IMG/VR virus record: IMGVR_UViG_3300033144_007170
Location: 29,557-93,556 of that record
Direction: 5' to 3' (one strand)
From: a virus
Length of the DNA stretch: 64,000 nt
This document shows positions 2,680 through 29,844 of this stretch, one piece after another; positions within the stretch are counted from its first letter, which is position 1; each line of letters opens with the position of its first letter. Position numbers and translations under genes: made by a program. Under the pieces are notes generated by a model. It had not been told where the DNA came from. It saw only the letters and a program-made list of their open reading frames with translations, and did no database searches.

Positions 2680-3045
2680 TTATTTTCCCTCTATTTCAAT
2701 TCCTAATATTTCCGCTGCTCCCCTTAATTGATATAGAGTAAACCTCCCGCTATTACCTGAATAATCGAATGTTTTTTGGAAAGCTTCTCTATAGACTACA
2801 GCTTTTTTCTCCTCTTCCCATACTTGACGATTTTCATATAAGGCATAGTTAGAACTGTAATCTGTCTTTTCTCTCCAAGTATCAATATAAAATTGTAGCT
2901 CAAAATAGGAATCGACTTTTTCTTTCGTAGAAAAATATTTTCTACCCACTTTAACGACAATACAATTTCGGGGTTCCTTGGCATTTCTTACATTAATGCC
3001 AGCATTAACAAGAAATAATACATCCCCCTTTTTTGGTTTTCTCAT
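2680..3045 (-). CDS. hypothetical phage protein
   Basis: 121-aa ORF with VVKVGRKYF motif common in small phage proteins. Confidence 0.6.
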   Translation of the reverse strand: MRKPKKGDVLFLVNAGINVRNAKEPRNCIVVKVGRKYFSTKEKVDSYFELQFYIDTWREKTDYSSNYALYENRQVWEEEKKAVVYREAFQKTFDYSGNSGRFTLYQLRGAAEILGIEIEGK

Positions 3046-3056
3046 AATCCTTTACC

Positions 3057-3380
3057 CTATACTACTTTATTTGCACGGCCCAATTCGGATAATTTCTTAT
3101 CCATTTTATTATCCATCCATCCTGCAACTTGTTGCTCTACGTTATCTATTTCTTCTACATAACAAGGAATTTTAGCCGTAATATCCAACCGAATAAACTC
3201 AAAATTCCCCATATTTTTTGTAATTCCCATACTTCCGCCAATATATGCGGGATCTGTCTCAAATTTTCTGACTAATATAGTTTCCTCTTCAGAATAATCT
3301 TCTAATACTTTATCCAATCTTGTTCTTCGTACTGTAATTAATGCTTTTCCTTCTAAAATCTTATTCTCATTTTCTTTCAT
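3057..3380 (-). CDS. conserved phage protein (replication region)
   Basis: 107 aa, GITKNMGNFEFIRLD motif; SD present. Confidence 0.65.
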   Translation of the reverse strand: MKENENKILEGKALITVRRTRLDKVLEDYSEEETILVRKFETDPAYIGGSMGITKNMGNFEFIRLDITAKIPCYVEEIDNVEQQVAGWMDNKMDKKLSELGRANKVV

Positions 3381-3403
3381 ATCTCAGTTCCTTTTTTTGT
3401 ATG

Positions 3404-3751
3404 TGTCAGGGAGCAGGACTCGAACCTGCACGAGATACTGCCCTCCGCGGACAGCCTCTCTTTTACACTGTAGTTTTGCAATATTTTTTATGCTTTTTCA
3501 CTGATTAGGCTACTTCGGCATATCAATATTGGGGCCTCTTACGGCCCCTCCTAGACTCAAGTAATCAACTCTATATCCTTCGCAGCAATGTACTTATTGC
3601 GTATACCAATAACAAATTGAATCGAAAACTCGTAATGTATCCGTTTAGCAGCCTAAGATACGTCTGTTTTCGCTCGTTATAGTTACTGCTCCTATTACTC
3701 TTAAAGGGAATTGTGACCCCAACTCAATTTATTAATTCCGCCATCCCCGAC
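3404..3751 (-). ncRNA. tRNA-scaffolded structured RNA (tRNA-Leu-like ends with two large insertions)
   Basis: 5' GTCGGGGATGGCGGAAT pairs with 3' TCCCTGACA; perfect T-arm GCAGG-TTCGAGT-CCTGC; split D-arm GGCGGAA..TTGGTATACGC; fills the intergenic gap. Confidence 0.7.
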
Positions 3752-3754
3752 ATA

Positions 3755-4423
3755 TTAAAATTTTGCTCTAAGCTGTACTGTTTTTTTATCCGCTCTCAAT
3801 GCTGTCTTCTCCATCCACTTCATAGCCTGCACTAAACTCGCATCCGAAGTCGCTTTCATAGCAACTTCTGGTTTTTCCCAAAAACAAAATAATACTGCCT
3901 GCATACGGTATGGAGTTGTATACTGACGATGATACTCGGAAGCTCTTTGTAATAATCTTAATTGATCTTTAGTATACATTCTCCAGCGCCCCACTGCTTT
4001 GTAAGATGCTTCGGGAACTAATCCGTTTCTGATAAGGTCTCTAAAATAAGATATTGAAATCCCCATTGCATCGGCGGCATACCGAATACTGTACAGTCTT
4101 TGTCCTTTTTTCGTCCGTACAATAGTACGGTTGCTCTTTCCGACGTTTACTTTATTTCTATGGTACCACTCTGTTGACTTTTTTCTGTGGTATTCTCGAA
4201 CCTCCTCCGATTCATTATATCGTTTTGCCTTTTGTACTTTTATTCGTTCCTTGTTGGTTTGATAATATTCAGAATGATAGGAACTCCTGTCAGAAAGACA
4301 TTTTTTATCATTATCTAATTTTATTGAGGGCCGGAGAGAATGACGTATTTTTTTCGGCGGTATTATCTCCATATTCGATTGTTGACTTGATGCAGTTGTG
4401 ACTTCTTTTTCCATTATATCCAT
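3755..4423 (-). CDS. MerR-like HTH DNA-binding protein
   Basis: YSIRYAADAMGISISYFRDLIRNGLVP...WRMYTKDQL winged-HTH pattern. Confidence 0.65.
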   Translation of the reverse strand: MDIMEKEVTTASSQQSNMEIIPPKKIRHSLRPSIKLDNDKKCLSDRSSYHSEYYQTNKERIKVQKAKRYNESEEVREYHRKKSTEWYHRNKVNVGKSNRTIVRTKKGQRLYSIRYAADAMGISISYFRDLIRNGLVPEASYKAVGRWRMYTKDQLRLLQRASEYHRQYTTPYRMQAVLFCFWEKPEVAMKATSDASLVQAMKWMEKTALRADKKTVQLRAKF

Positions 4424-4427
4424 ACCT

Positions 4428-5774
4428 TTATGCTATAATTAATTCCCCTTTTACATCAGAATGTCGATACTCCGACATTCTGCCACGATACCAATTTTGA
4501 CATTCGTTAATATCATTATCTACCAAATCTATAATAACAGGACGTTTCTTACCTTTATATAATCTTGAAATTCTTCCTATGGATTGACGTACTCTTGATT
4601 GAGGCGTAGCAAATACTAATCCGGCTAAATCTGGAACATCCATACCTGTAGAAAACATGCCGAATGTAGCGTAGATTATTCCACAGGTTTCAAGGATATC
4701 TCGTTTTTCCTCTTTTGTAGTTTTACTTATAAATAATCCCGGTTTATGTGCAGGATGTGTTTTATTTAACATATATTTTAATTGTTCTATTCTATCTGAC
4801 AAAACCAATACCCTCCTACCAGATAGAGCTAATTTTATAATTAAAGAAACTAAAATATCACTCCGATCTGTGTCTTCAGCCAAAGCACTTATAATAACTC
4901 CCCTTTTTCGTACCTTAGCTAATTGATATGTCCAACTTGGAATAAATCTGTTCGCCCCTTTATATCCGATAACTATAATTTTAGGTCTATTCTCTTCTTC
5001 TCTATCCGATTCTAAAGAAATTAGCTTTTCTCCAAGATGAAGACGAAAAACTATATCCATCCCATCAGGTCTATCTAAGGTTCCGGAAGCTCCTATCCGA
5101 TACTTAGCAGAAAACATTGAAACTGCTTTACTGAATTGCTCAGCCCCAGTCCTATGTAATTCATCGTATACAATTACACCGAAATGTTTCTTAAAATCTT
5201 CTCCGTATTTATCTTTACACACAGACTGGATAGTCGCTAATGTTATTGGTTTATCTTCATAATCTATTATATCGGCTTGTACATGCCCGATATCTTGTTT
5301 ACAGTGTTTAGTATGCTCTACTATCATATCCTTCCATTGCTCCAGAAGGCTGGTAGTAGGAACTACCACAAGAACATTCATCCCTATATGCTCAAGGAAT
5401 TTAAGAAGCATGACCGTCTTCCCGCTTCCTGTGCGTGCTTTTAGAATAAATCCAGTTTTCCCAATTGCTACAGAATCCATAAATTCTTGGTATAGCGGCA
5501 GTTGATTATCCCTAAGCTGAGAAATGAACTCGTGTTCAGAAAAAACGCCCTCGGAGATATCTATCTTTAGGTCTTCTATTTGAGCACAATCTACTCCATA
5601 ATACCGAGGTATGCCGAAATAGCCCTTCTTGCTTTCATCATACATAGGAACAGAAGCTAAATCTTCATACTTCGGCCTTGCTGTTAATTTAGCTCTTAGC
5701 TTTTTTATCGGGGCCTGCAATTCATCTATAGAAAGAAATAAATGGGTCCCCAATATTCCTTTTGTATAACTCAT
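4428..5774 (-). CDS. superfamily 2 (DExH, UvsW/ResIII-like) DNA helicase
   Basis: TGSGKT, DELH, SGT, TGMDVP, QSIGRISR motifs. Confidence 0.92.
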   Translation of the reverse strand: MSYTKGILGTHLFLSIDELQAPIKKLRAKLTARPKYEDLASVPMYDESKKGYFGIPRYYGVDCAQIEDLKIDISEGVFSEHEFISQLRDNQLPLYQEFMDSVAIGKTGFILKARTGSGKTVMLLKFLEHIGMNVLVVVPTTSLLEQWKDMIVEHTKHCKQDIGHVQADIIDYEDKPITLATIQSVCKDKYGEDFKKHFGVIVYDELHRTGAEQFSKAVSMFSAKYRIGASGTLDRPDGMDIVFRLHLGEKLISLESDREEENRPKIIVIGYKGANRFIPSWTYQLAKVRKRGVIISALAEDTDRSDILVSLIIKLALSGRRVLVLSDRIEQLKYMLNKTHPAHKPGLFISKTTKEEKRDILETCGIIYATFGMFSTGMDVPDLAGLVFATPQSRVRQSIGRISRLYKGKKRPVIIDLVDNDINECQNWYRGRMSEYRHSDVKGELIIA

Positions 5775-5776
5775 TA

Positions 5777-6043
5777 CTATTCAAAAATTCCTAATTTTTC
5801 ATACATTTCAGTTAATGCGGGATATAATGCATTATACAATTTTTCGATTGCCCTAAGTTGTGCTATCTCTAAAGTTTTTGCCGGAAGACGTACCCACTCA
5901 AACAGTCCATCACAATAACACACCCAAGGATTTTCCTCTCTGATAACAAGTCGGAATCTTCCGAAATATATCTCAGAGTATTGTTTTCTATTAATTGAGG
6001 ATATCGTATCTTTCCATTTAGGTTGTATAAATTTTGTATGCAT
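5777..6043 (-). CDS. hypothetical protein, tandem paralogue 3
   Basis: shares KW..FG.F.L..W..CDGLF..A..KL pattern with the two upstream ORFs. Confidence 0.6.
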   Translation of the reverse strand: MHTKFIQPKWKDTISSINRKQYSEIYFGRFRLVIREENPWVCYCDGLFEWVRLPAKTLEIAQLRAIEKLYNALYPALTEMYEKLGIFE

Positions 6044-7365: not shown

Positions 7366-7555
7366 GTATTTTCCCCTTTTCTTTTGTTTGTCGAAGATCT
7401 CTACCGCATATCCCACAATACCGAGATCCTACCTTTTCTGTTTGACCCTTGCACTGAGCGCAAGGAGCTTTAGTGCAAGATTGCTCAAATAATCTATCAA
7501 TATACATTTCATATCCAAAATCATCGTGAAAATCTTCTCGTTGTTCTCTCTTCAT
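7355..7555 (-). CDS. small Zn-ribbon protein
   Basis: CxxC...CxxC, SD GAGG upstream. Confidence 0.5.
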   Translation of the reverse strand: MKREQREDFHDDFGYEMYIDRLFEQSCTKAPCAQCKGQTEKVGSRYCGICGRDLRQTKEKGKIHEW

Positions 7556-7590
7556 CTGATCTATCCTCTTTAACTATAAAGGTATAATAA

Positions 7591-7721
7591 TGTGCGCCAC
7601 CCTGCCAAAAAGTGATGGAATCGAACCACCGTAAAACGTAATAATTTCGGTAATGATCACTCCCGCCATTATCCAATAGCTTATTTCCTCAATATACGGG
7701 ATCGAACCGTAATGGCGCACA
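7591..7721 (-). ncRNA. putative structured RNA with two tRNA T-arm motifs
   Basis: 9-bp closing stem TGTGCGCCA/TGGCGCACA; hairpins TACGG-TTCGATC-CCGTA and GGTGG-TTCGATT-CCATC. Confidence 0.55.
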
Positions 7722-7853
7722 AAGTTACAATAAAATTTTTGTTATGCACTATATCAAAAATTTTAGGGGGTCTGTAGCGCAAAGGGTACATGGTGCCCCA
7801 AGCTAACCGTTTAAAGTTTCCCATGAAGTTTTAAAAAGTTCCGACCCCCTTCT

Positions 7854-29463: not shown

Positions 29464-29844
29464 CTATTTTACAGATATTTTATAAAACTGTTTTTTTCCT
29501 CTTTGTAGTAACAGCTCCCCATCAACTGCATCCCTCTTGGACACGGTATAGGCTATGTCAGTTATAAGTTTTTTGTTAATCCTTAGCCCCTTTTGTTTTA
29601 TAAGTTTTTTTGCTTCGTTTAAAGATTTGCATAATCCAGAATCTTTAAACATCTTACAGACCCAAACAGGAAGTTCGAGCTTATATTCTGCCGTTGGATC
29701 CTTGGTCTGTTCGGTCGATTCTTTACTGTTTTGAATTTTACGGAACTCAACTTTAGTTGTCAGCTCAGCTATTTTTAAATTAGCTTTCCTGTATTCCTTT
29801 TTCTCATCCTCAGTCAAAAAATTTATATCTAAAGTAACCTCCAT
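29464..29844 (-). CDS. stand-alone S4 RNA-binding domain resembling the TyrRS C-terminal domain
   Basis: GL..S..EAKKLIKQ.GLRIN...ITD....LLLQRGKKQF. Confidence 0.75.
   Translation of the reverse strand: MEVTLDINFLTEDEKKEYRKANLKIAELTTKVEFRKIQNSKESTEQTKDPTAEYKLELPVWVCKMFKDSGLCKSLNEAKKLIKQKGLRINKKLITDIAYTVSKRDAVDGELLLQRGKKQFYKISVK

Follow-up and report, generated by a model that had tools for sequence, protein, structure and literature searches.

A 64,000-nt stretch of viral DNA, bases 29557–93556 of the 93,556-bp phage genome IMGVR_UViG_3300033144_007170 (a complete IMG/VR genome with direct terminal repeats; the stretch is called the window below), carries an RNA gene of about 345–349 nt on the minus strand at 3404–3752, within the replication module. 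Its upper body is that of a leucine-type tRNA of class II, but it has no anticodon arm, and two long expansions stand in its D-loop and at the anticodon-arm position. It belongs to a family of phage RNAs in which a tRNA-like shell (terminal stem, D-arm, variable hairpin and T-arm) encloses member-specific sequence, and the point at which its D-loop is interrupted is used recurrently in that family. We consider it rather probable, though well short of certain, that this strand-specific gene yields a non-decoding, stable tRNA mimic that is cut from an operon transcript and bears the expansions as cargo.

The ends of the RNA are closed by a terminal stem in which GUCGGGGA (3751–3744) pairs with UCCCUGAC (3412–3405) through 8 bp including one G-U, and U3752:A3404 lengthens the stem to 9 bp. 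The 5′ strand (3752–3744) reads U-G-UCGGGGA, where the canonical 7 bp begin at U3750, preceded by G3751:C3405 and U3752:A3404; the 3′ strand (3412–3404) reads UCCCUGA, followed by C73 and A74. CCA is not encoded, and the 3′ end is CACA. The D-arm is split into two halves. The first, UGGCGGAAU(U) at 3743–3734, holds U8-G9 and a 5′ half of tRNA-Leu type (UGGCGGAAUU); the second, (A)UUGGUAUACGC at 3610–3599, holds the 3′ half AUUGGUAUA with G18 and G19, followed by CGC that pairs with G10-C11-G12. The same closing ...ACGC is found in the relative L062, described below. A long variable-arm hairpin (3460–3432) is composed of 4 bp, a G/A mismatch, 7 bp and the 5-nt loop GCGGA, and a GU linker then leads into the T-arm GCAGG-UUCGAGU-CCUGC (linker and T-arm 3431–3413, T-arm 3429–3413). 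The 7-bp acceptor stem and the 5-bp T-stem with its UUCRANY loop are thus those of a canonical tRNA, but 138 nt stand where an anticodon arm with a 5-bp stem and 7-nt loop should be. Lacking this arm, the RNA cannot decode. Several traits that mark the shell family are present: a 5′ block (A/G)UGGCGGAA with a D-stem partner ending in CGC, a hairpin and a 1–2-nt linker straight before a canonical T-arm, a covarying terminal stem, and non-decoding, member-specific sequence at the anticodon-arm position.

Expansion domain I is a 123-nt insert after U17 of the D-loop (3733–3611), with 3–4 predicted hairpins and a tag-like reading frame. It is closed by 17 consecutive pairs between 3733–3717 and 3627–3611; since 6 of the 17 are G-U, the helix is possible on the minus strand only. 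Folded alone, the domain has a z-score of −2.45 relative to shuffled sequences. Expansion domain II comprises the 138 nt at the anticodon-arm position (3598–3461). When folded alone (z −2.0), it is closed by UACAUUG (3592–3586) and CAGUGUA (3470–3464), and it includes the hairpin GGGGCC-GUAAGA-GGCCCC at 3548–3531; an anticodon-type hairpin, with 5 bp and a 7-nt loop, is missing. Sequences resembling either insert were found neither elsewhere in the phage genome nor in the comparison loci searched. An earlier note, made from the letters of this DNA, had listed the 8-bp acceptor stem with one G-U, the T-arm, the variable hairpin, the hairpin at 3548–3531 and the missing CCA, and reading the sequence finds each of them where it was placed. 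The same note had described a tRNA-Leu-type D-arm split by an insert, which is present with a measured insert length of 123 nt, and a closing helix of about 18 bp whose non-Watson-Crick pairs are all G-U, which is essentially right.

The site of the D-loop insertion is shared. In three RNAs the insertion point and its flanks are identical: GGCGGAAUU is followed by 123 nt and AUUGGUAUACGC in the present RNA (the AUUGG flank lying 3′ of the insert), by 58 nt and AUUGGUAGACGC in L287, and by about 35–37 nt and AUUGGAGA... in L139. D-loop hairpins of 17–67 nt lie a few bases off that point in L062, L280a, L282 and L283. All 6 of the insert-bearing members examined have the insert closed by a helix, of 17, 9, 9, 9/10, 6 and 8 pairs. 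The site corresponds to D-loop positions 16/17, where length varies naturally. The splitting of the D-arm is thus a structured expansion that recurs in the family, and the one in this RNA is the largest seen.

Folding energies are in agreement with a structured RNA made from the minus strand. The whole RNA has a minimum free energy of −106.2 kcal/mol (z −4.26), and none of 100 shuffled sequences folded as well; the plus strand gives −77.9 and z −1.5. In the unconstrained ensemble the pair probabilities are 0.98 for the terminal stem, 0.98 for the variable hairpin and 0.82 for the T-arm. The genome was also scanned for a combined signature consisting of the T-loop motif, a 5-bp T-stem, a terminal stem paired at 7 of 7 positions within 520 nt, and the D-arm motif. 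A single site in the real genome carries it, vs 0.0 per genome in 100 dinucleotide shuffles. Together with the relatives described below, this above-chance signature upholds the proposal, already in the earlier note, that the RNA is built on a tRNA scaffold. A 10-bp complementarity between the two inserts was considered as a kissing contact and dropped, as 37% of shuffled sequences reach a run of equal or greater length.

Standard RNA tools pass over the locus. ARAGORN at its default setting calls no gene in the window, and Rfam 15 gives no match there at gathering scores; the statement that the RNA is neither a normal tRNA, a canonical tmRNA (transfer-messenger RNA) nor a group I intron agrees with these negatives. 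A permissive Rfam scan of 3100–4100 with E-values up to 10 recovers the 17-nt T-arm through the tmRNA model (7.7 bits, gathering score 47) and two matches at chance level, with no match to a group I intron or other ribozyme. The first chance-level match, to the PreQ1-I riboswitch at 3434–3386 on the minus strand (14.6 bits, gathering score 39), covers the T-arm as well as the ribosome-binding region and A-rich spacer belonging to the downstream gene and is probably fortuitous; the second, to the long noncoding RNA DLEU2 (17.4 bits), lies far under its gathering score. With the ARAGORN threshold lowered to 80%, a tmRNA spanning exactly 3405–3750 is called, among 10 other junk tmRNA calls genome-wide. 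Small members of the shell family do pass the Rfam tRNA gathering score, at 29.5–42.1 bits, but only because the model bypasses the anticodon arm by way of local ends.

Relatives of the RNA were sought through the neighbouring helicase gene. Its homologues P0002–P0027 share 54–76% identity and lie nearly all on Logan/ENA contigs, in assemblies of 94–99 kb. On the JGI contig L062, where the helicase is 68% identical, a 205-nt homologue of the RNA (5765–5970) is located directly upstream of the helicase gene. It has in common with the present RNA the GGGGAUGGCGGAA block, the T-arm, and a D-arm interrupted by an insert, which is closed by a helix and has ...ACGC at its end. A variable hairpin of 7 bp and a 5-nt loop occupies the same place and is followed by the same GU linker, and the outer pairs of the terminal stem differ on both sides in a compensatory manner. 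A 123-nt shell was found on L002, whose helicase is 35% identical. Pattern scans of IMG/VR yielded about 15 further distinct shells of 79–193 nt (L139, L146, L150, L152, L180, L225, L280a/b, L281, L282a/b, L283, L284, L286 and L287), which have the 5′ block and the T-arm in common and middles that are unrelated; L062 and about 15 of the IMG/VR shells have an identical GGGAUGGCGGAA. Most shells are single and located behind an ORF (open reading frame) on the same strand, outside tRNA arrays. Two middles recur in different shells, and L283 and L280b carry a nearly identical one. Other searches gave no close homologue: a phage collection gave no DNA match, and its helicases reached at most 33% identity in a protein search; helicase relatives in IMG/VR were at most 36% identical; GTDB contigs gave relatives of at most 29% identity over most of the helicase, with rows of 34–36% spanning only about 70 residues. 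No twin was found in IMG/VR by the exact 3′ motif or by a size-matched two-motif pattern, and literature searches returned no paper describing this phage shell family. A tertiary covariation A19-U56 suggested for L062 was dropped, as L281 has the same D-loop with C56.

Some further observations were made on the phages with related genes. In several of them two shells or tRNA-like genes are adjacent (L146:376–457; L280:6691–6799; L282:10467–10556), and the L146 neighbour scores as a tRNA (48.9 bits) with an anticodon loop about 9 nt larger. A permuted tmRNA is encoded at 5388–5816 (Rfam RF04321, 56.7 bits) in L180, a 108-kb IMG/VR phage that has an 87-nt shell as well. The helicase homologue P0009, of 726 amino acids (aa), has intein and HNH domains (PF14890 and PF13392), so the replication genes of this phage group do host mobile elements.

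An alignment of 16 members has 99% pairing in the acceptor and T stems, and both bases vary in 9 of the 12 pairs, a result equalled in 0 of 500 shuffles; when the stem partners are slid out of register, pairing falls to about 50%. A second estimate came from patterns blind to positions 1–3 and 70–72, with which 28 of 30 cells in 10 distinct hits are Watson-Crick paired. The shell stems therefore covary. Nine shells, with this RNA and L062 left out, served to build a covariance model, R1. R1 finds L062 at full length (33.4 bits, E-value 6e-5, 0.9 Mb searched), and its sole match in the 64-kb window is the present locus, at 3405–3504, with 22.6 bits and an E-value of 0.0019. With filters off, a search of the 1.2-kb stretch 3000–4200 gives 26.2 bits for the 3′ piece and 8.6 bits for the 5′ piece (3702–3750), such that the model aligns the two ends of the 345-nt span as separate pieces and not end to end.

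The shell can be compared with RNAs of known genomes. RNA1 of phage T5 (NC_005859, 30501–30644), which bears the GenBank note 'tRNA-like stable RNA with unknown functions', has an R1 score of 43.4 bits, on a level with the genuine tRNA-Leu genes that T4 and T5 carry. Like the present RNA, it has a tRNA-Leu-type D-arm (GCCGGAAUUGGUAGACGG) and ends closed by a terminal stem, its anticodon arm is swapped for about 65 nt, and a GAGA...UCUC hairpin and GU precede the T-arm. It differs in its length of 144 nt vs about 345 nt, in having no D-loop expansion, and in cargo sequences that are unrelated; moreover, it sits in the T5 tRNA cluster whereas the present RNA stands alone in a replication operon. 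A class II tRNA-Leu (RF00005) shares the terminal stem, U8, the D-arm GCGG-AAUUGG-UAxA-CGC, the long variable arm and the GGUUCGAGUCC T-arm; the present RNA departs from it in lacking both an anticodon stem-loop and CCA, in the 123-nt insert in its D-loop, and in C73. The T4 species 1 RNA (rnaC, NC_000866, 70908–71046) is a stable phage RNA of unassigned function whose ends are paired and whose T-arm is canonical, but it is without a GGCGGAA-type D-arm, scores only 17.7 bits with R1, and is located where the T4 tRNA cluster ends. Sequence comparison thus delineates a phage family of tRNA-Leu-type shells with exchangeable middles, of which T5 RNA1 is the sole annotated member found.

The genes around the RNA are packed closely. 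The order in the module is primase, SSB-like gene, superfamily 2 (SF2) helicase (4428–5774), a 222-aa ORF with a weak helix-turn-helix match (3755–4423, minus strand), the RNA, a 107-aa ORF of no assigned function (3057–3380, minus strand), a ProQ-C-like gene and a UvsX-like recombinase. The stop codon of the upstream ORF is 3 nt ahead of G3751, which leaves no room for a promoter of the RNA's own, and the downstream start codon lies about 23 nt past the 3′ end. Promoter-like or terminator-like sites adjoining the RNA on the minus strand were not found. Intergenic distances in the block range from −26 to 12 nt, except for three gaps of 243, 374 and 437 nt, and the RNA takes up 348 of the 374 nt of one of these.

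The RNA would then be transcribed as part of the replication-gene operon. Excision would be carried out by host tRNA-processing enzymes, RNase P at the 5′ end and RNase Z or exonucleases at the 3′ end, and the product would persist as a stable RNA through the protection afforded by its tRNA-like shell. The shell would provide tRNA-like protein contacts, while the expansions would be the working part, such as the binding site of a partner, a decoy or a sponge. Such an RNA would be the natural counterpart of the laboratory 'tRNA scaffold' of Ponchon and Dardel, in which an anticodon-arm-swapped tRNA frame is processed and nuclease-protected in E. coli (PMC3753655). Acceptor, D and T arms are retained and cargo replaces the anticodon arm in both; however, the engineered scaffold is man-made and derived from the class I tRNA-Lys3 or tRNA-Met, whereas the present RNA is natural, class II, and has an extra domain in the D-loop.

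Several results weigh against a cargo-bearing tRNA mimic. In the unconstrained ensemble the helix closing domain I has a mean pair probability of 0.008 and the D-stem has about 0; the winning competitor is a 10-bp long-range helix (3656–3647 with 3514–3505) that joins both inserts with a probability of 0.94, and imposing a cloverleaf-type core costs +5.1 kcal/mol. As the D-stem and the closing helix are not favoured by energy, the cloverleaf-like core rests on the relatives and not on folding, and the inner fold of the two inserts may follow either this core or the long-range helix. The z-scores of the expansions themselves (−2.45 and −2.0) are just moderate, and their GC content of 0.36–0.38 is the genome average, vs 0.61 in the shell. 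The 9-bp-capable terminal stem and the missing CCA are unlike a standard substrate of RNase P or of CCA addition. R1 also scores genuine tRNA-Leu genes, at 44.4 bits in T4 and 41.9 bits in T5, and so it demonstrates a tRNA-Leu upper body and not a non-decoding one; the 16-member set was pre-filtered for a paired terminal stem, which leaves 28 of 30 as the sole unbiased covariation figure. Finally, the sister contig L063 is without the RNA in the slot where L062 has it, and the RNA of the present phage lies on the opposite side of the helicase from that of L062. The differing slots and the absence from L063 imply that the element is dispensable, facultative or mobile.

A cis-acting element in the operon is an alternative that we regard as unlikely, though worth taking seriously. 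The RNA would serve as a tRNA-like processing or stability signal in a polycistronic replication mRNA, in the manner of tRNA punctuation and without any function in trans: cuts by RNase P and RNase Z would part the message for the helicase and the 222-aa protein from the downstream genes, or the fold would tune translation of the ORF at 3057–3380. The wedging of the RNA between same-strand genes with spacers of 3 nt and about 23 nt, with no promoter or terminator of its own found, is what such an element would show, and the L062 copy is likewise wedged, ahead of the helicase start; the single occurrence of other shells behind ORFs, and not in tRNA arrays, also fits. Nevertheless, a minimal tRNA-like fold would do for this purpose, and 261 nt of extra sequence that folds in a strand-specific way are hard to explain in so tightly packed a genome. 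The location differs between related phages, and T5 RNA1 accumulates as a stable RNA according to its annotation. Given the size, the strand-specific folding and the covarying shell, a cis signal fits less well than an RNA acting as a stable mimic, and the same three properties count against a decaying gene.

A more speculative extension, to which we attach a rather low probability, is that the shell acts as a natural display and processing frame into which phages load exchangeable functional RNA modules. The two modules of this member, in the D-loop and at the anticodon-arm position, would fold together into one domain whose role is to bind or inhibit some factor of the host, for instance an enzyme of translation or of tRNA-directed defence. 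In its bolder form, included in the same low estimate, the shell would be CCA-tailed and aminoacylated, with histidine suggested over leucine by G(-1):C73 in the four C73 members, and would act as a non-ribosomal aminoacyl carrier or sensor.

The related proposal of a chargeable or enzyme-trapping mimic, namely a decoy for a synthetase or for a tRNA-directed defence enzyme (for example, an acceptor-end nucleotidyltransferase toxin) or an aminoacyl carrier, is decidedly unlikely for this RNA. Bacterial leucyl-tRNA synthetase (LeuRS) needs A73 and the D/T-loop core and dispenses with the anticodon arm, the deletion of the anticodon stem-loop costing just a 2.5-fold loss of affinity, and A73C cuts leucylation 48-fold (PMC2377443). 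A73 is present in 11 of the 16 aligned shells, and charging of these members is conceivable. C73 occurs in the present RNA, L062, L002 and L180, and all four of these combine a G(-1):C73 pair with a pair between −2 and 74, giving a 9-bp terminal stem and no CCA. G(-1):C73 is a hallmark of tRNA-His; the occurrence of this pair in 4 of 4 C73 members speaks for a chargeable mimic, and histidine is to be taken as a lead only. However, with C73 and with −1:73 and −2:74 both paired, the would-be acceptor end of the present RNA is buried, and its leucylation is doubtful. The complete phage genome gave no match to a CCA-adding enzyme (PolyA_pol), an RtcB ligase or Ro60 (TROVE), and the sole synthetase-type match is a stand-alone C-terminal domain of the tyrosyl-tRNA synthetase (TyrRS) type with an S4 RNA-binding domain. 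Neither this S4/TyrRS-type protein nor the ProQ-like one co-occurs with shells elsewhere: the former was not found in the 9 other shell-bearing viral records searched for it, nor the latter in the 10 searched.

The TyrRS-type protein has 126 aa and is encoded at 29464–29844 on the minus strand (E-values 6e-9 and 2e-8); in TyrRS the C-terminal/S4 domain binds the long variable arm of the class II tRNA-Tyr, making it a tempting partner. The ProQ-like protein is the product of a 121-aa ORF at 2680–3045 on the minus strand, the second gene downstream of the RNA; its match is to Pfam Phage_ProQ_C_like (E-value 2.5e-14), a domain named for an RNA chaperone.

An interrupted tRNA gene, from which both inserts would be removed to give a working class II tRNA, is very unlikely. 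In silico, a textbook GGCGGAAUUGGUAUACGC D-arm is regained once the D-loop insert is deleted, and the intron mode of ARAGORN then reports a class II tRNA interrupted by a 128-nt 'intron'. But the anticodon stems in these calls are mismatched and shift with the deletion boundary, and the flanks of domain II cannot rebuild a 7-nt loop on a 5-bp stem. Even at the permissive threshold there was no match to a ribozyme, group I introns included, and the phage encodes no RtcB ligase. The middles of the family are unrelated to one another, and none gives an anticodon arm. A group I intron would not fit into inserts of 123–138 nt; with no model match and with exons that cannot be restored, this type of intron was rejected.

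Decay of a tRNA-Leu gene by junk insertions, leaving it functionless, is of equally low probability. The absence of an anticodon arm and of CCA, C73 in place of A73, inserts at the genome-average GC content, and a presence and slot that vary among related phages are all as decay would leave them. Against this stand the strong strand-specific folding, a shell that is intact and differs from L062 and the wider family by compensatory changes, and D-loop inserts at the same point that are always closed by a helix. In addition, a dead spacer of 374 nt would be atypical of an operon in which gaps other than the large ones are at most 12 nt.

A tmRNA-like rescue RNA, with an alanine-accepting domain and an internal tag frame, is barely credible. 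It was suggested by the G3-U70 wobble, the alanine identity element, which the earlier note had read in the 7-bp register, and by a tmRNA-like tag region; the pair does exist in that register, and ARAGORN at 80% spans 3405–3750 with the tag AVTITSENRRILGC ending at a stop. A tmRNA is also a large RNA whose ends form an acceptor/T-arm domain with the interior in place of the anticodon arm. The tmRNA system, however, depends on G3-U70, SmpB and a tag frame, which in this RNA are absent or not conserved: L062 has G3-C70 and L002 has C3-G70, and neither of them has the resume context or the frame, so the tag region did not hold up beyond the existence of a frame here. The tag is without the usual hydrophobic ...AA end and is reported by ARAGORN as 'Tag not identified'; the default setting calls nothing, the 80% setting yields the junk calls mentioned above, and the Rfam tmRNA families match the T-arm alone. 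A tmRNA has neither D-stem nor variable arm. YrlA-type Y RNAs are also non-decoding and imitate the tRNA elbow, but YrlA reportedly ends in a Ro60-binding stem on the anticodon side whereas the ends of this RNA form an acceptor-type stem; with the ends on the wrong side, no TROVE/Ro60 gene in the phage and no Rfam Y-RNA match, this reading was discarded.

Other parts of the genome merit a brief description. The sole canonical tRNA is a tRNA-Ile(UAU), located outside the window (G000:C1:9854–9928). The 437-nt gap, at 7417–7853 on the minus strand between the primase and the SSB-like gene, includes an RNA-like element, especially at 7591–7721, in which two hairpins (UACGG-UUCGAUC-CCGUA and GGUGG-UUCGAUU-CCAUC) have the form of canonical T-arms, a stem of 10 bp closes the element, and a AUGGCGGGA block resembles the D-arm motif of the shells; folding support for the element is weak (z −1.42). 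The 243-nt gap, at 2203–2445 on the minus strand, precedes the UvsX-like recombinase gene; it is rich in T, contains GGGAGGGAGG and GGGAGGGGGC...GCCGCUUAUUUUUU stretches, and may be a terminator/promoter junction.

Our study indicates that a shell of the T5 RNA1 type is widespread in uncultured phages, where it is kept in tightly packed operons, and that it tolerates very large expansions at two defined points. The RNA had been put forward as new. The shell type itself is not, since it recurs in many phages and matches T5 RNA1; what is new here is the double expansion and the largest size among the members found, the 123-nt D-loop expansion being unusual. Genes of this kind are invisible to tRNA finders and to Rfam, and their small forms are mis-called as tRNAs, which is of consequence for annotation. 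The 'stable RNAs' of T5 and T4 have stood unexplained in genome annotations, while other non-decoding tRNA-shaped RNAs, such as tmRNA, Y RNAs and viral tRNA-like ends, have each revealed a distinct biology. With a family in hand, its function becomes approachable by experiment through the enzymes that process the RNAs, the proteins that bind them, and their charging.

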